From a virus: a stretch of DNA of 64,000 bases. Below, piece after piece: positions 2,563 to 30,530 of the stretch. Position numbers and translations under genes: made by a program. Where the stretch lies: IMG/VR virus record IMGVR_UViG_3300050821_010655, positions 1 through 64,000 of that record. The stretch is one strand, 5' to 3'. Position 1 is the first letter of the stretch; each line of letters starts with the position of its first letter. The notes below the pieces were generated by a model. It had not been told where the DNA came from. It did no database searches and worked only from the letters and a program-made list of their open reading frames with translations.

Positions 2563-2583
2563 ACCGCAAACGAAAGGAACCAC

Positions 2584-2733
2584 ATGAACCACCTCCGCAA
2601 ACACTGGGCATTTTACGCCGTCCTGATTCTGGGACCAACTCTGTGCCTCACATTAGGAACGCAAGGAAGGCTCCCCGCTTTTACCCTGCTCACTGGCTGG
2701 CTGTTGGGCAGGCATTTTGGAAACCCCACATGA
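2584..2733 (+). CDS. 49-aa membrane protein (not in ORF track)
   Basis: GAAAGGA RBS; translates to MNHLRKHWAFYAVLILGPTLCLTLG...; stop at 2731-2733. Confidence 0.55.
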   Translation: MNHLRKHWAFYAVLILGPTLCLTLGTQGRLPAFTLLTGWLLGRHFGNPT

Positions 2734-14474: not shown

Positions 14475-14937
14475 CCGCCCGCCGCTTTCTGCGTGAAGAT
14501 AGGCGTTCCCTCCTACTTAGCCGCTCATCCTCACGCGGGCGACGGCGAGGCTCATCGCGATCACGCTGGCGGGGGCGATCCTCAGACTCGCCGTTGTCCT
14601 TGCCCTTGCCACCAATGAATTGAAATTGTTCCACCACTACTTTGAAGGCGCGGCGTTCTTCGCCTGATTTCTTGTCCTCCCATTTGTCCTCCTGTAACCG
14701 CCCCTCAAAATAACCGGGATCTCCCTTCTTTTGATACTCAGCCAGAGTTTCCGCCGCTTTATCCCAAACTACCAATGGAATAAAAATGGCCTCTTCCTTG
14801 GTGTCGCCATTGCCATCTTTCCACTTGCGATTGACCGCCAGCGAGTTGTTTCCAACTGCCGTGCCCTTACCTGTAAACCTAATCTCCCAATTCCTTGCGA
14901 GATTGCCCAAAAGAATCACTCTGCATACGCCAGTCAT
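14455..14937 (-). CDS. ssb: single-stranded DNA-binding protein
   Basis: VILLGNL, LAVNRKW, VVWDKAAE, KKGD...EGRLQ...WEDK. Confidence 0.9.
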   Translation of the reverse strand: MTGVCRVILLGNLARNWEIRFTGKGTAVGNNSLAVNRKWKDGNGDTKEEAIFIPLVVWDKAAETLAEYQKKGDPGYFEGRLQEDKWEDKKSGEERRAFKVVVEQFQFIGGKGKDNGESEDRPRQRDRDEPRRRPREDERLSRRERLSSRRKRRADERDPY

Positions 14938-14961
14938 AATTAATTCCCTTTCGTTCTGTGG

Positions 14962-15396
14962 TTAATCCTCCGACGCCCCGGCATGCACTCGCGGCGGCTC
15001 CTCGACTTCCGGCTCGGGTTCGATTCCCGGCAGTTCCTTCTGGTCGGGGTCCGGGCAATCACTCTCGGCCTTCATCTTCTTGCGCTTGGCCCCATACCCG
15101 CCGCTTACTTTGACCGTGGGCGGCGTGACGCTACGATCCGACTGCCACGCCCAAGCCACCGCCAGTTTATCTTCATTGGCGCTCGCCACCTTGTTGATGG
15201 CGTCCCAATTCTCAACCACCAGCCCAGTTTGGAGTCTCAGGATAACCGCCATCTCCATCTGCCTCCACTCACTCTCTTCGTCAGGCAGGAGCGCCCGCAC
15301 GACCGAGAGCCAGAATTGAATAGACTCGGGGTTTATGCCGTTGGATTCGGGTTGTGATTTTGCCGGTTTGGATTTCTTGTTTTTCTTTGTGCTCAT
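14962..15396 (-). CDS. hypothetical protein with acidic C-terminus and QKELP (clamp-binding-like) motif
   Basis: Start re-placed at MSTKK (15396). Confidence 0.55.
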   Translation of the reverse strand: MSTKKNKKSKPAKSQPESNGINPESIQFWLSVVRALLPDEESEWRQMEMAVILRLQTGLVVENWDAINKVASANEDKLAVAWAWQSDRSVTPPTVKVSGGYGAKRKKMKAESDCPDPDQKELPGIEPEPEVEEPPRVHAGASED

Positions 15397-15410: not shown

Positions 15411-15533
15411 CTACATCGGAATTGTACAAGTGACTTTGTATTTTGTTTTACCGGGTAATTTATATGTGATGGATTTCGCGAAAGCTTTAGATGTTTTTTG
15501 CTTTCGTTTTGTGGTCTTTTTCTTTGTGCTCAT
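15411..15533 (-). CDS. 40-aa very basic peptide (not in ORF track)
   Basis: MSTKKKTTKRKQKTSKAFAKSITYKLPGKTKYKVTCTIPM; GAAAGG RBS; directly behind a promoter. Confidence 0.5.
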   Translation of the reverse strand: MSTKKKTTKRKQKTSKAFAKSITYKLPGKTKYKVTCTIPM

Positions 15534-15558
15534 GTGTGCCTTTCTTTTATGTGGTTTC

Positions 15559-18555: not shown

Positions 18556-20166
18556 TCACACCTTGATAATGTTCATCTCACGCGCCTGAACGCCGTAGGG
18601 TTCGGCTTCATTATCGACCAATAAAAATTGTGATAAGGTTCCGTCCTTGACCAACTCCAGCAGCCGCCGCACAATCGCCTGCCGCTTGTTGCCCGTCCGT
18701 TGCATCTCGTCAAAGATTAGGATTTTGGCGGGACTGTTCTGGCAGAGCGAGATTTGCAGGCCGGCATAGACCAGCAGTTTTTCAGTCCCGCTAAAGACCT
18801 CGTGGGCAATCCACCGCCCGACCGGCGCGTCCATTCCCATTTTGCGATCCTGCTCGCTCACCCGCCGTCCAAAGTCTCCGTCCTTGTATTCCAGTGGCGA
18901 GTTCAAAATGCCGTCCGTGAACTTGCGGGCGATCTTGAGCAGCGTGCCAAATGCCTTCTCGGCCAACGACTGTTGGTGTTTCTCAAGTTGGGCTTTCATG
19001 TGCTTGATCACCACCTGCTCGGCCTCGGCTTGTCCAATCTTTTCTTTGGCTTTTGTCACCGCTTCTTTGTTCTGTTGGTGGGCGGTCCATTGGGTGTGCT
19101 GCTTGTCCAACAGATCAAACTTCTCCCATGCCTCATCCTTTGCCTTTTCAAGTTTCTTTGCCTGCGGGTCGTGCGGCTTCTTGTCAAACGCCGCCAGTTT
19201 GTTCTTGGCGTCGCCCAACGCCTTGCGAGTGCCCACTAAGTCAGCTTCCACTTCTTTGCGGTTTGCGTTTTTCATTTTCAACCATGCCTTCCGCCAGTCT
19301 GTTCCTTCATTCAGACAAGTCGGGCAACGGTCGAATTTCTTCATGCGGGTGATCTCACCATCAATCTCATCAATATCGTCCTTGGCTTCCCGCACCTTCT
19401 TTTCCGCCGCGTCAACCGCTACCGCCAGTTCATTGCGCTTGGTATCCTTGGGGATTGCCGCCGCCAAATCTGCCGCTTGAGATGCCTGCCGCGCTTTCTC
19501 ACGCTCGGCGCTCACGTCCTTAGGTTCGTCCTGTGTTTTGAACGCGCTTACGACTGCCGATTGAGTTTTAATTGTGTCCTTGGCTTCCTTGTCAGCCGTT
19601 TCAAGCTGGGCCATCAGGGTTTTCATCCACAGGCAAATATTCTGTTTCTGCTTATTGCGCCACTCTATTCCTTTCATCAATAAGTCATACCACTTCCTGA
19701 TCGCCACTTCGTTTCCGTTCTCGGGTAATTGCATGTCCTTGAGCAATTCACTTTCGTCATATCCCATCTTTTTCAAATCCACCCGTTCCAGCACGTAGGC
19801 CAGTTGGCGCTGCCCCGTCAGTTTGAAATACTCGTTAATGTCCATCATCACGTCAGGGAATCCAACTTGCAGGTCCATGCTCTTGCTATACCGCCCGTCG
19901 CTGTCGCGGCTGATCGTCACGCTATTGGTCATGCCGTTGTCAAAGGTCAGGCGGCAAAACAATTCCTTGTCGTCCGAACAAGGCTTGAATGTCGCGCTGT
20001 GCTCTTTACCTAGCGAGGCGATAACGCCATACATGCCTAATCTCAAGGCGCTGCCGATGGCGCTCTTGCCAGAAAACGGGTTGCCTACTATGAGGTTGGC
20101 CGATTGAAGACTGAGTTTGAGGTTGCGCCCCTGCCAAGAGGGGCATTTAAGTTCGGTAATGGTCAC
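18556..20166 (-). CDS. SMC/Rad50-like ABC ATPase with coiled coil and zinc hook
   Basis: GNPFSGKS, central CPTC, FSGTEK signature, ILIFDE; GTG start at 20166 after GAAAGGA. Confidence 0.85.
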   Translation of the reverse strand: MTITELKCPSWQGRNLKLSLQSANLIVGNPFSGKSAIGSALRLGMYGVIASLGKEHSATFKPCSDDKELFCRLTFDNGMTNSVTISRDSDGRYSKSMDLQVGFPDVMMDINEYFKLTGQRQLAYVLERVDLKKMGYDESELLKDMQLPENGNEVAIRKWYDLLMKGIEWRNKQKQNICLWMKTLMAQLETADKEAKDTIKTQSAVVSAFKTQDEPKDVSAEREKARQASQAADLAAAIPKDTKRNELAVAVDAAEKKVREAKDDIDEIDGEITRMKKFDRCPTCLNEGTDWRKAWLKMKNANRKEVEADLVGTRKALGDAKNKLAAFDKKPHDPQAKKLEKAKDEAWEKFDLLDKQHTQWTAHQQNKEAVTKAKEKIGQAEAEQVVIKHMKAQLEKHQQSLAEKAFGTLLKIARKFTDGILNSPLEYKDGDFGRRVSEQDRKMGMDAPVGRWIAHEVFSGTEKLLVYAGLQISLCQNSPAKILIFDEMQRTGNKRQAIVRRLLELVKDGTLSQFLLVDNEAEPYGVQAREMNIIKV

Positions 20167-20384
20167 TGCGGTCCTTTCGTTTTGTGGTTTGCGACGAATT
20201 GAGCAACGGCCCAACGCCGCTCAAATTGTTCTTTATAATGACCTGACAGTTCCGGGAGATAAGGAACCGCCTTCGACGCGGCAGCACAACTTCCGCAAGT
20301 GCATTCAATGGAATGCACCGAAACTTCACAGCACAGCCACATGGCAGCTTCGGTCAGCACTTTAAGTTTGTCATCTGTGTTCAT
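20163..20384 (-). CDS. small Cys-rich protein
   Basis: GTGA overlap with the SMC-like gene; CTCGSC. Confidence 0.5.
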   Translation of the reverse strand: MNTDDKLKVLTEAAMWLCCEVSVHSIECTCGSCAAASKAVPYLPELSGHYKEQFERRWAVAQFVANHKTKGPQ

Positions 20385-20688: not shown

Positions 20689-21480
20689 CTATCTTTTGGA
20701 TCGACCTTGTTTCTCGGGTTCCGGTTCTTCCTCGATGGGATCACACGGCAGATCGTCGGCGTAGCTGTGAGTGTCGGCATAAGGCTGGGCGTTCATCGCA
20801 ATAAACAACGTGCTGACCAACGCCTGAAACCATTCCGGCCCGATAGAGATGTCTTTCAAGTCCGGGTTTTCGTCCATGCACCGCTGGCCAATACTCGCCG
20901 CCGTCTTGAAGCACATGCAATAGAGGTTTTCCAACTGTCCAAGCCGATCTAGTGCGTCGTCTACGCCATTATCGCTCTCTTGCTTATGGCTTCTGGATTC
21001 TTCACGTTCACTGCGGTCATCCTCACGTTCTCGACGGCGTGGGCGTTCTTCGGGTTCATCTGCTTCTGGCTCGTCCTCGCGTTGTCGGCGTCTAGGCTTT
21101 TCGTCCTCATCTTCATCGGTTGTGGCCGCGCCATTCACCACCTCAGCACTCTTGCTCACCTCCAGAATGCGCGTCACCTTGTCCTTGTATTCGTCGTCGC
21201 GGGCGAGCAAGCCATCGAGTTTGTTTCTCTTGTCTCGCGTGGCGACAAAATTGAATTCCTTGCCTTTGTCCTTGTCGGAGATGCGATCATGATCCCAGAT
21301 CTTCACCTTTATCTCGTTGCCAGCGCGATCCTTCATCATTAGAATCTGAATCGACCCGTCGCTATTCTTGCCCACGCCGTCTTTCCAAGTGAAGAATTGG
21401 GTGACCTTCCCGCGAAACGCCTTTACGATGTCACCGTCCTCTAAATCTTTTATGTCTTGAACTGTGAATACCTGCGGCAT
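20689..21480 (-). CDS. putative OB-fold ssDNA-binding / recombination protein
   Basis: Beta-rich N-domain (FRGKVT...IKVKIWDH), charged linker, acidic tail; strong RBS. Confidence 0.5.
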   Translation of the reverse strand: MPQVFTVQDIKDLEDGDIVKAFRGKVTQFFTWKDGVGKNSDGSIQILMMKDRAGNEIKVKIWDHDRISDKDKGKEFNFVATRDKRNKLDGLLARDDEYKDKVTRILEVSKSAEVVNGAATTDEDEDEKPRRRQREDEPEADEPEERPRRREREDDRSEREESRSHKQESDNGVDDALDRLGQLENLYCMCFKTAASIGQRCMDENPDLKDISIGPEWFQALVSTLFIAMNAQPYADTHSYADDLPCDPIEEEPEPEKQGRSKR

Positions 21481-21518
21481 TTGATTTCCTTTCGTTCTGT
21501 GGTTTGTGAATTTTTTCT

Positions 21519-21563
21519 AAAAGTTAAAGAGGGGGCGGTTGCTTATCACGCAAGCCCGCCCCC
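21519..21563 (-). terminator. intrinsic terminator closing the ncRNA
   Basis: GGGGGCGG-GCTT...AAGC-AA-CCGCCCCC followed by TCTTTAACTTTT. Confidence 0.7.
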
Positions 21564-21838
21564 AAGGTTAAAACGACGCCTTTTAGCTGTGTTCCACAGA
21601 TCGCCTGACACATCTTGAACCTAATCACAACGCCTTACCCCTAGACCACCCCGCCACATGGAGGCGGGGACGGGAATTGAACCCGCGTCTTTGCTTTGGG
21701 TTGTACCATCGATCCGTTTCACTTGTCGTTTCGTTTCTAAGCCTTCGGGTGAAAACTTAAGCCTTTATCCAGTGATCTTAAGTCTGACCTTGAGCCTTGG
21801 ATGGGCTTTTCGCCAAAGCTACTAAGCCCCACCCGAAA
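21564..21838 (-). ncRNA. structured RNA with circularly permuted tRNA-like module (YrlA/Y-RNA-like) and a repeat-bearing 5' domain
   Basis: T-arm GCGGG-TTCAATT-CCCGT (21670-21686), acceptor CCCCGCC-TCCATGT-GGCGGGG (21649-21669), D-arm GTCT-AGGGGTA-AGGC (21632-21646); enclosing long-range stems. Confidence 0.8.
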
Positions 21839-22606
21839 TTATGGTTTCTTGCCGTCAAAAACAAACCCAAGCAGGGCTTTGCCCATTTTTAGATTTGTCT
21901 CAACCTCCTGATCATTCGCCCGCGAACGCGCCTTGCGTACCGCCCGAATCGTCTGTTCCGCCCGATCAAGAATCTCCGATTTTTCAGCCGGGGTGATCAA
22001 CCCGGACCACTCTTGCTCCGAGATAGTGCCAACCACCAAGTCAACAGGCACGAGTTGCGTCTGCGCCGGGTGCTCTTTGGTTGGCTCGTGCAACACCACC
22101 ACCCGCACGTCTTTCTTGGTCCGTGCTTTGTTTACTTCGCGAGCCTTATAAATTCCACCGCCGCGTTGGGGGTCGTCCTGAAATCCCTTGGCGGGATCGA
22201 GCGTCGGAATCGCCTTGGACAAATGAAGCACCCAATCGGTCAGCCGCTTTTCCAATTCCAAAAGGGCGGTGGCGGGAATGTCTTTGAGCAAGACCGTTCC
22301 GGCGTCATCGTCCAGAACCACATCGGCTCGTGCCTTGGTGTTGGCGTCCGCCACCTGCAACCCGGCATCCATTGCCTTTGCCAAATGTGGAACAATCCAT
22401 GCCAGTTCTCTACGCACCGTGCTTTGAATATCCGACTGCGCTTCGGTGGTGGCGGGTTTGCCCTCTTCGTTGGATTGGAAAGTGGTTCGCTTTTCCTCAA
22501 ACAGATGGCGTTTCTTTTCAAAGGTGTTCGCCAAATCGGTTCGGGTTTGAATGGCTTGGGTTTCCAGATTTCCTTCGGCAGCTAACAGTTCGTGTAGTTT
22601 CGTCAT
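21839..22606 (-). CDS. unknown alpha/beta coiled-coil protein, first gene of the leftward early operon, immediately upstream of the ncRNA
   Basis: 255-aa ORF MTKLHELLA...AVRKARSRAN; own promoter. Confidence 0.8.
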   Translation of the reverse strand: MTKLHELLAAEGNLETQAIQTRTDLANTFEKKRHLFEEKRTTFQSNEEGKPATTEAQSDIQSTVRRELAWIVPHLAKAMDAGLQVADANTKARADVVLDDDAGTVLLKDIPATALLELEKRLTDWVLHLSKAIPTLDPAKGFQDDPQRGGGIYKAREVNKARTKKDVRVVVLHEPTKEHPAQTQLVPVDLVVGTISEQEWSGLITPAEKSEILDRAEQTIRAVRKARSRANDQEVETNLKMGKALLGFVFDGKKP

Positions 22607-22650
22607 ATTTTTGTGCTCTGCGGTTTATGGTTTCTCGGTCAACTGAAACC

Positions 22651-22680
22651 ACCTTGCCACACCAAGCCGAAAGGTGTCAA
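22651..22680 (-). promoter_or_regulatory. promoter TTGACA-N18-CAAGGT
   Basis: Minus strand AATGTATTGACA, A-rich upstream, TG extension. Confidence 0.55.
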
Positions 22681-22823
22681 TACATTGTTCAACTTTTTAT
22701 TCCAACCACTCCTGACCTGCCGCTGATTGAAATTTAACCCCTCGAATTGCCCATAAAACCGCCCTGTCCTGCGCCACAAATCGTTTGAGACGGGCTTTTA
22801 TTGCAAAAAGGTAGTCAGACACC

Positions 22824-22901
22824 AAGAAAACGCCCCGGCAGGCCGAGAAACCCACCGGGGCGCACCACAACGAATGAACGATCCGCTTCGCTATACGCGA
22901 G
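22824..22901 (-). ncRNA. candidate ~80-nt sRNA (5' hairpin, single-stranded seed, terminator)
   Basis: Lies between a promoter (22908-22937) and the terminator CGCCCCGG...CCGGGGCG-TTTTCTT (22824-22862); no ORF on this strand within the span. Confidence 0.55.
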
Positions 22902-22907
22902 AGCCTC

Positions 22908-22937
22908 ACCTTACCGCACTTCAACCGCTGGCGTCAA
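22908..22937 (-). promoter_or_regulatory. promoter TTGACG-N18-TAAGGT
   Basis: Hexamers at 22932-22937 and 22908-22913. Confidence 0.55.
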
Positions 22938-22940
22938 GCC

Positions 22941-23120
22941 CTAATCCCGCACGCTTTGCAGGGGCGGTTCCGCCGTGTCGGTCACTGGCTGGTTCAAAAT
23001 CTTCTGCTTAATCTCTTTACGCATCACCCGCATGGCGAGCACCGTCTTGGTGCAGTGCTCCGACGATTCATCAAGACTGGCCAGTTGCTCCTTAAGGTGG
23101 CGCAGTTCCTTGCGATTCAT
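22941..23120 (-). CDS. small coiled-coil protein
   Basis: GGAG RBS before MNRKEL. Confidence 0.5.
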   Translation of the reverse strand: MNRKELRHLKEQLASLDESSEHCTKTVLAMRVMRKEIKQKILNQPVTDTAEPPLQSVRD

Positions 23121-23122
23121 AA

Positions 23123-23758
23123 TCACTCCACGTTTTTGTTCCACCAGTCGTACAGCCCTTTCAAGATCGGGTGAAATCCATATTGTTTCATCTCGACATA
23201 AGCCGTTGCTTCGGTCCAGTGATCCGACCAAACACGATAGACACCGCAAACCAAACCAGTACGATCGTTTCCACCAGCACTCTTGAGTACCGCATCTATT
23301 CTTGAGCGAGTGCGGCTGTCGCTTCCGCAATGGACGTAACAATGCCCAACCTGCATAATCGCTACCGCCTTGGCCACCGTGCTTACTTTGGGTCCACCCT
23401 CCAACTGTTCACCCACCGAGATTGGAAAACGATAGACCTTCATGCCCATCCGTTCAGCCAAGTTGTCACTGCCCTCGGCGTCGGTGTTGAGCTTCACCAC
23501 GCTTCGCACCCCCGCCAGCCAGATATTGGTCCAACCCTGCGCCGTGGGTTGACCGCCACGCAGGATTACTTTGTCGGCGTCAACGGTGTGGAGGTTGGGG
23601 ATTGGCGGAAGTGGTGTTGTGCAACAGGACTCCAGCAAAAGGCAAAACCACGCGCCCAGCCAAAGCAGATTGCGTTGGAGCAGGCGAATGCGTATGTTAC
23701 GGAGCACAGCGCAACAGGAACTACACATCCGCACCGCAATCAGCCAGGGAGGGCGCAT
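23123..23758 (-). CDS. exported/lipoprotein tyrosine (dual-specificity) phosphatase-like protein with an interrupted P-loop
   Basis: IPNLHTV, RGGQP, GVRSVVKLN, YVHC...GNDRTG, A..EM..YGFH; hydrophobic stretch ending ESC. Confidence 0.75.
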   Translation of the reverse strand: MRPPWLIAVRMCSSCCAVLRNIRIRLLQRNLLWLGAWFCLLLESCCTTPLPPIPNLHTVDADKVILRGGQPTAQGWTNIWLAGVRSVVKLNTDAEGSDNLAERMGMKVYRFPISVGEQLEGGPKVSTVAKAVAIMQVGHCYVHCGSDSRTRSRIDAVLKSAGGNDRTGLVCGVYRVWSDHWTEATAYVEMKQYGFHPILKGLYDWWNKNVE

Positions 23759-23779
23759 GGCAAAATATCAACCGGGATA

Positions 23780-24502
23780 TCATTTCCCCTTTGGCTCAAT
23801 AATGATTAGCCGCACCCTGTCTTTGTTGGTGCTATAGAGGTGAACCAGTTCGGCGGGGGTATAGACCGTCATGGGCACCAACTTGAGGGTGTGACCGCTC
23901 GGCGTGGAGAGGACGTAGAAATTGGTATTCGCCCCTGAATTGGTGCTTAACAAGTGGACTGGAATCTGCGGCGGTCGCATGAAGTGCTGGGGCATTGGCG
24001 GAACCTGAACTGATTCTGCAATCACCTCGGGTTCGTTGGAAACGTAAGCCATGTTCTTGGCCGTGAACTTGGCTTCGCAACTGGGGCACTTCAACTTCAC
24101 CAGCCGGTGATAGTTCGTCCCGCCCGGAGCCAGTTGAAAACTGTTGGTGGCGATACTTAACGAAGGTCCGGTAAATGGACGCTTGCAGGACGGACAGCGG
24201 ACGGTGAACAACTCCTGCGCCGAGCAGGAGAGCCACATCAATGACGCTATCACCAGTGGCATTATCTTCCTCATCGCGCTTTCCATCTTGCCTCTGTGGA
24301 CTTTGTTTTTCATGTTTTTGCCTTCCTTTTCATAACACTCAATACAGATGGGATATTTACTGCCCTTGTGTACCGGGTCGGGAAACCATTTCATTTTGTC
24401 CTTGGTGAGCTTTCGCCTGCAAGGTCCAGTACACTCATAAAGTTTTGATTTAGATTTGCGCTCACGCTTCATGTTCTTTTCTCTGGGGGTCCAAATTTGC
24501 AT
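23780..24502 (-). CDS. zinc finger + internal signal sequence + exported CxxC domain
   Basis: CTGPC...CIEC, then MRKIMPLVIASLMWLSCSA-Q, then CPSC twice. Confidence 0.55.
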   Translation of the reverse strand: MQIWTPREKNMKRERKSKSKLYECTGPCRRKLTKDKMKWFPDPVHKGSKYPICIECYEKEGKNMKNKVHRGKMESAMRKIMPLVIASLMWLSCSAQELFTVRCPSCKRPFTGPSLSIATNSFQLAPGGTNYHRLVKLKCPSCEAKFTAKNMAYVSNEPEVIAESVQVPPMPQHFMRPPQIPVHLLSTNSGANTNFYVLSTPSGHTLKLVPMTVYTPAELVHLYSTNKDRVRLIIIEPKGK

Positions 24503-24666
24503 GAGTAAGCCCTGACTACTTCGTCCCTGACTTTTTCCATTGCCTCGACTGCCAGTCGGTATTCTTCGTTGGCAGAATTGTAATCGCCCGGATAAAGGCT
24601 CATCGCTTTTAGCGCCTTCACCTCTTCATCTGAAAGGGTGAGATCAATTTGAAATGCACCGCTCAC
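24469..24666 (-). CDS. hypothetical protein
   Basis: Operon packing. Confidence 0.45.
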   Translation of the reverse strand: MSGAFQIDLTLSDEEVKALKAMSLYPGDYNSANEEYRLAVEAMEKVRDEVVRAYSCKFGPPEKRT

Positions 24667-24667
24667 T

Positions 24668-24877
24668 CTATTTTTGATTTATCTGCTTCTCCAACTCCGC
24701 TATGCGTTCCAATTCATGCTTTTGGTCTGTCTTACATTGGGCAATGGCGCTGTAGAATGCAGGCAAACCCGCGGAAGGAGTGTCGTCTATGCTTTCTTCC
24801 AAAGACGACTGCTCCTCCCGCAATCGGCTCAACCGATCCAGGCAGTTCTTTAACTGGAGATTCAACCAGTCAGGCAT
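24668..24877 (-). CDS. small coiled-coil protein
   Basis: TGATG coupling. Confidence 0.5.
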   Translation of the reverse strand: MPDWLNLQLKNCLDRLSRLREEQSSLEESIDDTPSAGLPAFYSAIAQCKTDQKHELERIAELEKQINQK

Positions 24878-25119
24878 CAGGGAGGAGTTAACGCCAGAAA
24901 CGCCTTGCCTTGGTCGCTATTGGGGTCAATCCCAGCGGCGACCAACGCTTGGAGCATATTGCTGCGGGCGCTGTTCTTTGAGAGCGCGATTAAACCATCC
25001 CATTGTGCTTGGCTCGGTGCGGTCGGACTGGAGAATATTCCAGAAATGGCCGCAACCACTTCGGGTCCATATTTTTCAAGCAGGCTCAAGAGCAGAGGAG
25101 CGAGTGTTACCCAGTTCAT
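24877..25119 (-). CDS. small membrane-associated protein
   Basis: GGAGG RBS; amphipathic N-terminus. Confidence 0.6.
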   Translation of the reverse strand: MNWVTLAPLLLSLLEKYGPEVVAAISGIFSSPTAPSQAQWDGLIALSKNSARSNMLQALVAAGIDPNSDQGKAFLALTPP

Positions 25120-25472
25120 GGCAGACCTCCTTTCGCTGCGGTGATTGAGTTGAGAACGTTTGTTCCTGCCATCAGCACATTTGCCGGGGCAGGACTCGTG
25201 AGGTTGTTTTCAGCCGCCACCACAGCCAGTCCAAAAACCTGCTGAAAGGTATTAAAGTACTGGCTGACTTGCGGAACCGAATTGGTTGCAACCTGATGAC
25301 TAACCACCAACAGCGTGTACGAATAGTCCGCTGCGTTGACGGCATTGCCGATAGCCGCCAAGGATGTGTAAGCCGCCGATTGAGGCGTTGACGATTTGAA
25401 GATCCCGCAACCTGCAAGCAGGAGGCAGGACACTGCCAGTGATGGCAATGTGCATTTAAGTTTTTTTGTCAT
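25116..25472 (-). CDS. lipoprotein
   Basis: Lipobox LLLAG-C. Confidence 0.7.
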   Translation of the reverse strand: MTKKLKCTLPSLAVSCLLLAGCGIFKSSTPQSAAYTSLAAIGNAVNAADYSYTLLVVSHQVATNSVPQVSQYFNTFQQVFGLAVVAAENNLTSPAPANVLMAGTNVLNSITAAKGGLP

Positions 25473-25480
25473 GTTTTGTT

Positions 25481-25681
25481 TTACTTGTAACCACCGGCCT
25501 CGTTTTCAAGGTCAGCGATAGTTTTTAGAATATCCTTCATCATGTCGGGATACTCCTTGAGCGCCTTTAGCATGTCATCCCTGTGTCCGAAACAGATTCT
25601 TTCCACGTTGCAGGGCTTTCTTGGAGCTGTCCTGCAAGCAGAAAGTCCAATCAGCATCAGGATGAATGCGGCTCGTTTCAT
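25481..25681 (-). CDS. small lipoprotein (possible spanin component)
   Basis: MKRAAFILMLIGLSA-C. Confidence 0.6.
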   Translation of the reverse strand: MKRAAFILMLIGLSACRTAPRKPCNVERICFGHRDDMLKALKEYPDMMKDILKTIADLENEAGGYK

Positions 25682-25694
25682 GTTGTCAGTTTAT

Positions 25695-25937
25695 TCAGGA
25701 GTTCCAACGGATGTGAGGCCCTCCAGCCAGCCCCAGTAGAATGTTAATCAGGATGATAACCGCCGCAATGGCGAGAATAACTCGCGCCACTTTAGCAAAC
25801 GGTTCAGGCAATGCGATGTAGTTTATCAGCCACCACAGCAGCCAGAACACCACTCCGATCACAATGAGGTAAATCAGTCCATGAATCACGGACTCCCCAC
25901 TTACGTTCATGTCGGCCAGTATTAACGCGAGGTTCAT
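25695..25937 (-). CDS. two-TM membrane protein (holin-like)
   Basis: LIYLIVIGVVFWLLWWLI..LPEPF.KV..VIL. Confidence 0.65.
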   Translation of the reverse strand: MNLALILADMNVSGESVIHGLIYLIVIGVVFWLLWWLINYIALPEPFAKVARVILAIAAVIILINILLGLAGGPHIRWNS

Positions 25938-25988
25938 TGTTTCCTTTTGGGTTGAGCAGCCTGCATAAAGTATGTAACTCGTGATCGG

Positions 25989-26369
25989 TCACACTGCGAT
26001 TGCCCCCTTGGGCGCGGTTCTCACCACTTTGGGAATATCCTCATCCTCTTTGGCGGCGACCGCCACGGTTGCGGTGTCGTCAGGACCAGGCACGGACCAA
26101 AATACCTCGTAACTGGTTTCGACAATATGATCGTGCCCCTTGCGGCGGACCACCACCTTGGCTTCCTTGTTGCCGGGCTCTCCTTCTCCGTGGAAAAAGA
26201 CAGCAAACTTTTTGTCCGTTCCCTTGGGGTCAACCGTGGCGACAGATTCACCGAACGGAACAATAGTAGCGTAGGTTCCGTCATCATTCTTCAATACCGG
26301 GTTGGCAAAGGTGAAATCCACCTTGCGCCTCTTGCCTGCAAGAACTGTTCCTAACTTTAATGTTTCCAT
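25989..26369 (-). CDS. hypothetical beta-rich protein
   Basis: ORF with AACGAAAG leader. Confidence 0.55.
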   Translation of the reverse strand: METLKLGTVLAGKRRKVDFTFANPVLKNDDGTYATIVPFGESVATVDPKGTDKKFAVFFHGEGEPGNKEAKVVVRRKGHDHIVETSYEVFWSVPGPDDTATVAVAAKEDEDIPKVVRTAPKGAIAV

Positions 26370-28068: not shown

Positions 28069-28779
28069 TCATTTTAGGACGTTAATCTGTAACCTAAAGT
28101 ACATCTTCGGATCAGGCGAGTTGGTAAGCCCAAGCGCATTTCTGAAGTTGGTAAATGGACCGTTAAGGTTGATGGCTGACTGGACCTGGACCAAATAAAC
28201 AAGGTTGCTGACCGGCACGGTGTAGCTTACCTCGGGACTGTAATCGCCTTCAAGACCATTATAGAGTTTGCTGGTCGCCGCGAAATAATACGTCGCCCCG
28301 GCCACAAGCGGTCCAATCCTCGCCGTGGTGTTGGTCGCCGGGCCGACCGTCACCGAGTTGGTATAGGCCAGACTGACGCCGCCCCAGTGGATTCCATAGG
28401 CAGTTATCAATGGATCGGTGTCCGCAATCCATGCGAGCGTGACCCCGGGGCCGGATGGAGGCACCAAAGACATATCCATAGCCCGCCTGGGTATCTTTGA
28501 AAAGCTGGGAGGTATCGGCGGAGATTTTGGTTTAGGCGCAGCACAACCTCCGGCAATTAGCATGGACGCCACAATCATGAATCGCGCAATGCGATGCTTG
28601 AGCGCATATTGAACCAACAGGGCTACTGAATAAATCCCAAGCCTCCGCTTCACTTTAAGCAGGTGGTCGTCGATTGTTTTTGGGCTGAGTTTAATTGCAA
28701 ATGCCGCTTCCTTGCGGTTCTTTCCTTCCGCAATGAGCTTGAGCACCTGTTGCTGGCGCGGGCTGAGAGTGCTTTTCAT
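28069..28779 (-). CDS. LuxR-type HTH fused to lipoprotein signal, FN3 domain and Verrucomicrobia-type C-terminal motif
   Basis: LSPRQQQVLKLIAEG..KE.A..I.LSPKTI..H; MLIAGG-C; VTLAW..Y...GATYYFAAT; QSAINLNGPFTN...MYFRL; ATGA-coupled start 28779. Confidence 0.8.
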   Translation of the reverse strand: MKSTLSPRQQQVLKLIAEGKNRKEAAFAIKLSPKTIDDHLLKVKRRLGIYSVALLVQYALKHRIARFMIVASMLIAGGCAAPKPKSPPIPPSFSKIPRRAMDMSLVPPSGPGVTLAWIADTDPLITAYGIHWGGVSLAYTNSVTVGPATNTTARIGPLVAGATYYFAATSKLYNGLEGDYSPEVSYTVPVSNLVYLVQVQSAINLNGPFTNFRNALGLTNSPDPKMYFRLQINVLK

Positions 28780-30530
28780 TTGATGTTCATCCCGCTCGTA
28801 CTCCCGCTGCTCCATTGCTGGCCCATGGCCACCTGGCCCCCACCCGCCGGAGGGTCCACGCCGTAAACGTCCCGGTAGCCTGCCGGTATGTTGGTGTAGC
28901 TGCTCGAATATGCGGGCGAGGCCGGGTCCACCGCAGGCCACGCCAGGAATCCGAACCATGCAGGCTTGCTGGCGAGATAGTAACTCGGCGGAAGGTCGGC
29001 GCTCGCAAATCCATCCGGCACAATACCGCTATTCGTGGCCGTGGCGCTGGTCCAGTTGTATGCCCGAGTCAAAGTACTGCGCGGAAGCAGGTCGGTTACG
29101 GCGGCGTTGCAACTCACGTCCCACCACCCTAGGTAATAGATCGCGTTGGCCTTGCAGCCGCCAGCTTGCCCGGCGTAATCCTCATAATTCGTGGTAATGC
29201 CGGTTGTGCCAAGGACGTTCCCAATGCTGCATTCGTAACGGTTGGTGACGTTCGCGGCGAAGGCGTATTGAAGCCCCTCCCCCGTTCCGGCGCTTGGATT
29301 GTAGCCAAGCGTACGGCTCCTGAACGCCACGTTGCGAGACGACCCACCCCAGGTGTTATCGAAGCCAATCGCTGGCGAATAGTTCCCTTCGTAGAGGTTC
29401 ATGTTCGGGTTGCCGCCATGCTGCAAGAGTCCCTGCAAAATCACTGTGAAGAATGGAACCTGATTCGTCATCACGTTGTAAGCCCAGACCCCTCCGTGCG
29501 AGCCGTTCGGGTAAAGCCCAGTGTTGACCGAACGGGAGATGTTGTTCTGCACGAGTATCCCGGCGCTGGCCCTGGTTCCGAATCCATAGGTATCAAGCCC
29601 GGCAGTTGCGTCACATGTGCAATGGTCAATCTGACAGCGCAAGGTCCAATGAGCATAAATCGCGGGAGTGTGCTGAGTCGTTCCCAAGTGGACGACGACG
29701 TTCGACATCCAGCAATCGACCGCGCAATTGAAATCCGCTCGGCCTTGGCTGAAAGTGCAGTTGGCAATCCAGGATTTCCGCACCGGCCCGCCCGAGTTGA
29801 ACCGCCATACCTGCGGCTGCTGGCTTGACCCATATTGAAGATTCACGTTCTGGTTGTTCCAGTTGGTCATGTAGAGCGGTTCGCGCAGCGTGATCGTGGT
29901 GCCGTTAATGGCCGTGATGTAGTTGACCTGAAACTGAGCGCGGTCCCTTCCGTCATTGGGGAAACTGACACTCGTGTATTCGTAGAGCGAGTAGGGTCCG
30001 TTGGATGAGTTGCCGTAAATGTCTGTGTCCACGTCGTCGTTTTGGTCCAGCACAATCATCTGGCCCACGGCGTATCCGTTCACACCTGCCACAGTGATTT
30101 GCGTCGTTCCCTGCGAGTAGCCCGCCGTCCAGTTCGTGTGATTGCCGGTGCTCGGCGTCACCGTTTCGTTCACGCCCCACCATTGCCAGTTGCCTATTTG
30201 CGCGTCAGGATAGTTCGCGCTCGTGAACGTCACCCCTGGAGCGCCGTTCAATCCAACGCCGTCGTTGAAGATGTTGATCGTCGTGCCGCCCAAATTGTAA
30301 GTGCCGTTCGTGGCGAGTTGCACGTAGCTGTTGCTCGGACAGGTGCTCAGAGCGGTGTTGATGTTGCCACCAGAGGCCAGCAGGATCGGCGTCATGCTGG
30401 ATAACGGAGGGATGCCGCCAGGGACGCCGACTTGATTGGTCCAGCCTGTTCCTGCGGGCTTCTGGACCTGCTGTAAGGGGTCCGAGGCGAGCGCGGAAAG
30501 AGCAAAGAAGAATGGAAGTAGGTAACGCAT
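28776..30530 (-). CDS. signal-peptide protein with right-handed beta-helix (pectin-lyase-like, possible depolymerase/adhesin)
   Basis: MRYLLPFFFALSALA-S; stacked WIANCTF / CWMSNVVV / CQIDHCT / LVQNNI / NLYEGNY repeats. Confidence 0.7.
   Translation of the reverse strand: MRYLLPFFFALSALASDPLQQVQKPAGTGWTNQVGVPGGIPPLSSMTPILLASGGNINTALSTCPSNSYVQLATNGTYNLGGTTINIFNDGVGLNGAPGVTFTSANYPDAQIGNWQWWGVNETVTPSTGNHTNWTAGYSQGTTQITVAGVNGYAVGQMIVLDQNDDVDTDIYGNSSNGPYSLYEYTSVSFPNDGRDRAQFQVNYITAINGTTITLREPLYMTNWNNQNVNLQYGSSQQPQVWRFNSGGPVRKSWIANCTFSQGRADFNCAVDCWMSNVVVHLGTTQHTPAIYAHWTLRCQIDHCTCDATAGLDTYGFGTRASAGILVQNNISRSVNTGLYPNGSHGGVWAYNVMTNQVPFFTVILQGLLQHGGNPNMNLYEGNYSPAIGFDNTWGGSSRNVAFRSRTLGYNPSAGTGEGLQYAFAANVTNRYECSIGNVLGTTGITTNYEDYAGQAGGCKANAIYYLGWWDVSCNAAVTDLLPRSTLTRAYNWTSATATNSGIVPDGFASADLPPSYYLASKPAWFGFLAWPAVDPASPAYSSSYTNIPAGYRDVYGVDPPAGGGQVAMGQQWSSGSTSGMNIK

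Follow-up and report, generated by a model that had tools for sequence, protein, structure and literature searches.

Between the last gene of one operon and the module that follows it, the genome of an uncultivated phage from soil carries a candidate non-coding element that reads on the minus strand, from 22937 to 22824. The window analyzed here spans the first 64 kb of an IMG/VR virus record 76.7 kb in length, and coordinates above 64,000 follow the numbering of the genome. The whole phage is present in a soil metagenome run. It is a tailed phage, the structural genes of which include those for a portal, a protease and a major head protein, and its replication genes encode a primase-helicase, a single-stranded DNA-binding protein (SSB) and an AAA/SMC-like ATPase. 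From ~3.8 to 73.3 kb nearly every gene lies on the minus strand, and the LuxR/sigma-r4-like regulator at 28069-28959 is the sole regulator found; no family match was obtained for the genes flanking the divergent promoters at 73.3 kb. The string of genes leading to the locus ends with a 59-aa open reading frame (ORF), which has a GGAG 8 nt ahead of its ATG, starts where the phosphatase-like gene ends and has no match to a Pfam or PHROG family. The features of the locus, in the order in which they would be read, are as follows.

24502-23780, minus strand: 240-aa gene of the upstream gene string
23758-23123, minus strand: phosphatase-like gene of the upstream gene string
23120-22941, minus strand: 59-aa ORF, last gene of the upstream operon, with its TAG stop codon at 22943-22941
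22937-22908, minus strand: promoter-like TTGACG-N18-TAAGGT (TTGACG at 22937-22932, TAAGGT at 22913-22908), spacer-18 class, TTGACG subclass
22900-22888, minus strand: weak 5' hairpin TCGC/GTATA/GCGA by folding, with 4 bp and a 5-nt loop
22887-22864, minus strand: U/G-rich linker of 24 nt that contains the proposed seed
22879-22864, minus strand: proposed seed, the 16-mer GTTCATTCGTTGTGGT
22863-22830, minus strand: intrinsic terminator hairpin with a GC-rich 15-bp stem and a 4-nt loop, followed by UUUUCUU (whole element 22863-22824)
22684-22651, minus strand: next promoter downstream, TGTATTGACA-N18-CAAGGT, 45 nt ahead of the DUF7873 gene
ATG at 22606, minus strand: DUF7873 gene of the downstream module

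Architecture of the candidate RNA

The promoter boxes, 5' hairpin, seed and terminator that a first-pass annotation had placed here are all present on the minus strand, and the -35 box begins only 3 nt past the stop codon of the 59-aa ORF. In the leaderless cases of the promoter class described below, 6-9 nt separate the -10 box from the start codon, from which we infer that transcription would start at ~22901 ± 2. The terminator hairpin, at -27 kcal/mol, is the strongest of the genome in a whole-genome census of hairpins followed by T-runs, the runner-up having -22.9; on the plus strand, the hairpin has no U-tract behind it. The locus thus carries the rho-independent terminator required of a base-pairing small RNA (sRNA). 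The predicted transcript of ~78 nt contains no AUG, and its sole GUG and UUG frames pass through the terminator. Two minus-strand ORFs of 75 and 57 aa were rejected as coding sequences because they cross the terminator and have no ribosome-binding site.

The seed had been described as unpaired, which holds for the centroid fold, where it is open; the minimum-energy fold places 7 of the 16 bases in a weak helix with 22886-22880, and a seed base is unpaired with a mean probability of 0.41 in the free RNA and 0.20 within a read-through mRNA. RNA folding reveals no alternative anti-terminator fold that stands out. A structured element was considered in the stretch from the terminator to the next promoter and dismissed, the 137 nt in question having a fold z of +0.37 relative to shuffles, as was a replication origin or primer at the locus, given that the GC-skew has no inflection near 22.8 kb.

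Known RNA families are of little help in naming the element. Rfam yields no match at gathering score over the whole window, and at E ≤ 10 the interval 22500-23100 gives three matches only, all at chance level and from unrelated families. The covariance models of the P1 c4 and P4 CI immunity RNAs have no match at the locus, and ARAGORN detects no tRNA or tmRNA gene in the window. Relatives of the surrounding DNA are equally scarce: blastn of 21000-25000 against GenBank phages gives no match, and exact 19- and 20-mers from the seed and terminator are absent from the viral and genome collections. Relatives of the DUF7873 gene occur at 4 viral and 35 metagenome loci, with at most 72% amino-acid identity, where the intergenic region shows no nhmmer or blastn similarity and no synteny. 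In the closest viral relatives (64% amino-acid identity) the DUF7873 gene sits inside a tRNA array (contig positions 1470-2947 and 4766-6556), and ARAGORN finds nine tRNA genes in one contig carrying a DUF7873 relative. The phosphatase-like gene retrieves no viral locus as a single query; as an alignment query it retrieves relatives with 46-49% identity and no synteny, and nothing from prokaryote genomes, whereas its closest homologues, 73% and 68% identical, are on Logan contigs. The primase-helicase shares at most 44% identity with any relative. The phage is without near relatives in the collections searched. In a soil metatranscriptome from a second study, short contigs with 100% identity cover 23516-23766, 24999-25359 and 25672-26000 only, at a depth of 2-3, so that the phage or its DNA was present in the RNA library of that second sample.

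A promoter class with an 18-nt spacer

In the genome, the pattern TTGAC[AG]-N18-nAnnnT is found 13 times, compared with 3-6 times at each other spacer between 13 and 23 nt, and when the -10 box is narrowed to YAnnnT the counts become eight and 0-2, respectively. The 10-mer TGTATTGACA alone occurs in six copies, against 0.15 expected, and all of them precede genes in the correct orientation. Of the 13 class members, three are located within long genes, roughly as many as chance would place there, and ten are non-coding or at gene boundaries. Seven of these ten have an ATG or GTG 4-9 nt past the -10 box, a spacing that implies leaderless mRNAs and provides independent support for the class being real. 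A TGTA extension ahead of the -35 box is found in six class members. Members conforming to (TGTA)TTGAC[AG]-N18-nAnnnT, other than the candidate, include the following, two of which face each other across ~100 nt at 73.3 kb.

15592-15559, minus strand: class member in the window
22684-22651, minus strand: class member in the window, ahead of the DUF7873 gene
62431-62402, minus strand: class member in the window
64533, 69481, 71089, 72155 and 73316, minus strand: class members in genome numbering
73337, plus strand: class member in genome numbering

The candidate promoter fits the class pattern, is among the ten non-coding or gene-boundary copies and shares the TTGACG subclass with the members at 72155, 64533 and 62431. 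Of all class members it has the least validation, with neither TGTA in front nor a start codon behind; the missing start codon is to be expected of a non-coding RNA gene, and equally of a chance match. A generic sigma-70 scan does not report it, and TTGACG by itself is frequent in coding sequence. Chance would supply ~3-4 spacer-18 matches per genome and only ~0.3 in non-coding DNA, on which account the candidate promoter, judged by its sequence, is quite likely to be real. A 12-mer found also at the promoter at 72160 was discarded, being at about chance level.

The DUF7873 gene has a promoter of its own, which makes the downstream module independent of read-through at the terminator. This downstream promoter is also better than the candidate, so that a promoter placed ahead of the terminator would yield mainly the short RNA. 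Given that the boxes fit the phage's own enriched promoter class and are followed by an exceptional terminator, a discrete non-coding RNA of ~78 nt is probably made from the locus.

The leader motif and its predicted pairing with the RNA

Six copies of a leader motif, ACCRCA(N0-5)(C)GAAAGG, are found in the phage. In the form of the 16-mer ACCACA(G/A)AACGAAAGG, it occurs in three mismatch-free copies located 5-9 nt ahead of the starts of the SSB, ATPase and 263-aa genes, and chance cannot account for three exact copies. In looser form, the motif also stands ahead of a 49-aa ORF (2584, plus strand), an 80-aa gene with its start at 25119 and a small Lys-rich ORF (15533). The leader copies reported in the first-pass annotation are confirmed at 2563 and 777 on the plus strand and at 14962-14947, 20188-20173 and 21503-21488 on the minus strand, and two copies, at 25142 and 15555 (both on the minus strand), come in addition to its list. 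The motif is located inside operons, directly past upstream stop codons, and ends in an extended Shine-Dalgarno sequence; the start regions that would be targeted are mostly unstructured, with unpaired probabilities of 0.4-0.8. A near-exact copy, ACCACAAAACGAAAGC, lies at 15515-15500 (minus strand) inside the Lys-rich ORF that begins at 15533, where it is coding (KKTTKRKQK).

The motif is not confined to this phage. Among 2.9 million viral contigs searched in IMG/VR, the exact 17-mer AACCACARAACGAAAGG has one match in each of 17 unrelated contigs, and at least 9 of the 17 matches are 4-12 nt ahead of an ATG. Because an identical 17-mer precedes start codons in unrelated viral contigs, the motif is probably a convergent, generic strong ribosome-binding leader, consisting of a CA-rich stretch and GAAAGG, rather than a phage-specific operator.

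The predicted target start regions, ranked among 117 start regions by cofolding with the 78-nt RNA, are listed below.

25117-25142, minus strand: start region of the 80-aa gene 24877-25119, covering GAAAGGAGG; best predicted target, cofold rank 3/117
2563-2586, plus strand: leader of the 49-aa hydrophobic ORF 2584-2733; top cofold target, ddG -18.8, rank 1/117
20164-20188, minus strand: leader of the gene for the 536-aa AAA/SMC-like ATPase, with its GTG at 20166; cofold rank 5
21478-21503, minus strand: leader of the 263-aa gene (start 21480); cofold rank 7
14935-14962, minus strand: leader of the SSB gene (start 14937); rank 41/117, poor predicted pairing once structure is counted
15531-15555, minus strand: looser leader copy of the small Lys-rich ORF; rank 50, poor predicted pairing

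The claim that the complement of the seed closely matches these leaders fails at the level of sequence: it aligns with them as ACCAC--AACGAA, with local scores of 14-15, against a mean of 18.5 for random genome segments. In terms of duplex energy, the outcome is different. The 16-mer forms duplexes with five leaders at a mean of -13.9 kcal/mol, relative to -9.7 ± 1.7 for dinucleotide shuffles, and the observed energy is matched by 23 of 1000 shuffles for the 16-mer and by 10 of 1000 for the 24-mer. When the 78-nt RNA is cofolded with the 117 start regions, the motif-bearing leaders rank 1, 3, 5, 7, 41 and 50. Over these six leaders the mean ddG is -12.2, compared with -7.8 ± 2.1 when the linker is shuffled, and 6 of 314 shuffles do as well. 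Relative to shuffled seeds, the pairing with the leaders has p ~ 0.02. Pairing no better than that with random leaders had been named beforehand as a possible refutation of the proposal; four leaders are in the top 7 of 117, and the advantage of the leaders over the other start regions is equaled by none of the 314 shuffles (p < 0.004). The six leaders carry one motif, so that these ranks amount to about one independent coincidence, not six, and the look-elsewhere effect of scanning 64 kb by eye is large.

Complementarity at the translation-initiation regions thus exceeds background, but the match is of modest quality and has equals elsewhere. With the exact antisense of the leaders set aside, only about four other loci pair equally well with the leader family when both strands (153 kb) are considered. 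When the genome and the sense-strand transcriptome are scanned, the leaders are among the top ~15 loci, with ~10 coding sites pairing as well. One of the four or so genome loci is the spacer of the promoter at 22684-22651, which reads CCTTTCGGCTTGGTGT (22674-22659, minus strand) and pairs with the leader family as well as the seed does; it would be transcribed only via read-through at the terminator.

The predicted duplexes span ACCRCA..CGAA, upstream of the Shine-Dalgarno core, and at both positions where the purine of the motif varies, the RNA has a U opposite. Most pairings require a bulge of 1-2 nt and touch only the edge of the core, which is itself reached only at the 25119 leader. There, the predicted duplex comprises 21 bp (11+3+7, five of them G-U) from positions -23 to -2, with an energy of -29.1 kcal/mol; its 7-bp block lies outside the common leader motif, and the region is second best among 51,112 genome windows. 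This start region was absent from the targets named in the first-pass annotation, which had the RNA occluding the ribosome-binding sites of the SSB, the SMC-like ATPase and others. Of the genes named there, the ATPase ranks 5 of 117 and the SSB 41, and the Shine-Dalgarno core is mostly missed; the case for the regulon is weaker than had been proposed.

Some of these start regions have neighbors of their own. The 49-aa ORF lies just past a gene for a GIY-YIG homing endonuclease and, in size and hydrophobicity, is reminiscent of type I toxins; the candidate RNA is 20 kb away from it, unlike known type I pairs. Directly ahead of the leader of the 263-aa gene is a GGCGGG...CCGCCC hairpin followed by a T-rich run (21560-21505, minus strand), which probably marks the end of the unit comprising the DUF7873 gene and the non-coding stretch downstream of it. 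The transcript from the promoter at 15592-15559 is predicted to have the leader at 15531-15555 at its 5' end.

Explanations of the locus

The reading that we favor, at a probability of roughly 0.35 for the chain as a whole, is that the 3' end of an operon has a compact gene for a non-coding RNA nested in it, the product of which represses translation at the leaders. The spacer-18 promoter would start the RNA at ~22901, just past the stop codon of the last gene, and the terminator would end it at ~22824, the upstream operon ending at the same terminator. The product would be an RNA of ~78 nt composed of the weak 5' hairpin, the U/G-rich linker and the terminator hairpin. Through the linker at 22887-22864, it may base-pair with the initiation regions of phage mRNAs that bear ACCRCA..CGAA, the best candidate targets being the 80-aa gene at 25119, the 49-aa ORF at 2584, the ATPase gene at 20166 and the 263-aa gene at 21480, and this pairing would lower the translation of its targets. 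The anatomy, the membership in the promoter class, the strength of the terminator and pairing above shuffled controls are established in silico; we infer the activity of the promoter, the accumulation of the RNA, its pairing in vivo and the direction of its effect. The roles of repressor and early-to-late switch assigned in the first-pass annotation, together with its argument from a missing CI-type repressor, are pure conjecture.

The simplest competitor is a plain operon end, in which a terminator follows an ordinary 3' UTR, the promoter boxes are silent and the complementarity to the leaders is coincidental. A stop codon 3 nt ahead and a terminator behind are indeed the default layout of an operon end, and the candidate promoter is devoid of TGTA, is followed by no start codon and is missed by the generic scan. 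The leaders resemble the seed complement at chance level in sequence, equal pairing energies occur elsewhere, and a U/G-rich RNA suits any A/C-rich leader, composition alone accounting for -9.7 of the -13.9 kcal/mol. However, the ~3-4 spacer-18 matches expected by chance are already filled by the three copies in coding sequence, leaving ~0.3 expected in non-coding DNA, and the pairing with the leader family exceeds that of shuffled seeds. A plain operon end is somewhat unlikely but a serious contender. The evidence from promoter and terminator applies just as well to a real short RNA with another role, either in pairing with host mRNAs or as the terminated product of a terminator that the phage overrides. 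Both have counterparts in lambda, where LPR1 targets mainly the host and the 6S RNA is the terminated transcript of PR', and the lack of uniqueness of the phage targets in the pairing scans also fits. Against the antitermination version, a strong promoter at 22684-22651 serves the downstream module, no antiterminator-like protein is found among the neighbors searched against Pfam and PHROG, and no anti-terminator fold stands out; given that most neighbors match no family, the missing Q-like protein is weak evidence. Taken together, a short RNA with another role is unlikely, albeit a serious contender.

It is also conceivable that the function resides on the plus strand, with ACCACAACGAATG acting either as the leader or start of a 45-aa ORF (22874-23011, plus strand) or as a DNA operator akin to the leader motif. 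The ORF exists, and ACCACA soon before an ATG is also found on the plus strand at 786 and 2584. Nevertheless, the ORF has no Shine-Dalgarno sequence and no plus-strand spacer-18 promoter upstream, and it lies antisense to the 59-aa gene, amid genes that are otherwise all on the minus strand. The location of the leader motifs inside operons, directly ahead of starts, points to a role at the RNA level and argues against a DNA operator. A function of the plus strand is consequently very improbable, and the nested RNA gene is preferred.

If the nested gene is real and its RNA represses a set of phage genes marked by the leader, it would mean RNA-based post-transcriptional timing in a distant lineage of soil phages, brought about by a compact cassette of promoter, RNA and terminator that is amenable to testing. 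If the locus holds only a terminator, the cleanly defined promoter class of the phage and its strong ribosome-binding leader remain.

Comparison with known phage and bacterial RNAs

Phage sRNAs are known mostly from lambda, P1, P4, P22 and enterobacterial prophages. To our knowledge, very few have been described from lytic or environmental phages, and fewer still act in trans on several phage genes. Among short phage RNAs with their own promoter and intrinsic terminator, lambda OOP and P22 sar, of ~70-80 nt, are familiar cases. OOP, sar and aQ are cis-antisense to a gene on the opposite strand, whereas the candidate has no credible gene opposite, only the 45-aa ORF. The PR'-tR' module of lambda, which works with Q, gates promoterless genes; the gene downstream of the candidate has a TGTATTGACA promoter and so differs from those controlled by such a module.

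Trans repression at leaders by a short phage RNA, as proposed here, recalls c4 of P1 and P7 and the CI RNA of P4. The c4 RNA of P1 is a trans-acting RNA repressor of 77 nt. According to work by Citron and Schuster from 1990-1992, c4 reportedly pairs with leader sites that include the ribosome-binding site. It is cleaved from a longer precursor and has two target sites, both within its own operon, whereas the candidate would have its own promoter and terminator and targets spread over 23 kb. For repression of many genes at once, the functional analogue is a protein: RegA of T4 lowers the translation of many early mRNAs via their initiation regions. We know of no phage RNA with a global role like that of RegA. 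By analogy, the candidate might be the RNA counterpart of RegA, acting in trans on leader-marked phage mRNAs to lower the translation of replication and early genes, but this extension is doubtful. It is an equally long shot that such an RNA of the RegA type operates in a lineage that has no cultured relatives and in which many mRNAs are otherwise leaderless.

In layout, the candidate resembles the sRNAs nested in 3' UTRs, such as DapZ and MicL, in which a promoter located where the upstream coding sequence ends, or within that end, is combined with a shared terminator and a seed located just before the hairpin. DapZ and MicL are, in contrast, Hfq-dependent sRNAs of enterobacterial chromosomes with conserved seeds. 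Among phages, the closest likeness is to lambda LPR1 (PreS), an sRNA the 3' end of which is the operon terminator tL2a. As in LPR1, which is ~70-90 nt long and acts via base pairing, a GC-rich hairpin with a U-tail would double as the terminator of a phage operon, and the two RNAs have no sequence similarity. LPR1 was found by Hfq RIL-seq and Northern blot, targets mainly host mRNAs and activates dnaN, whereas the candidate is predicted from sequence and has phage leaders as its proposed targets. If real, the locus would join the known phage-encoded sRNAs that share an operon terminator.
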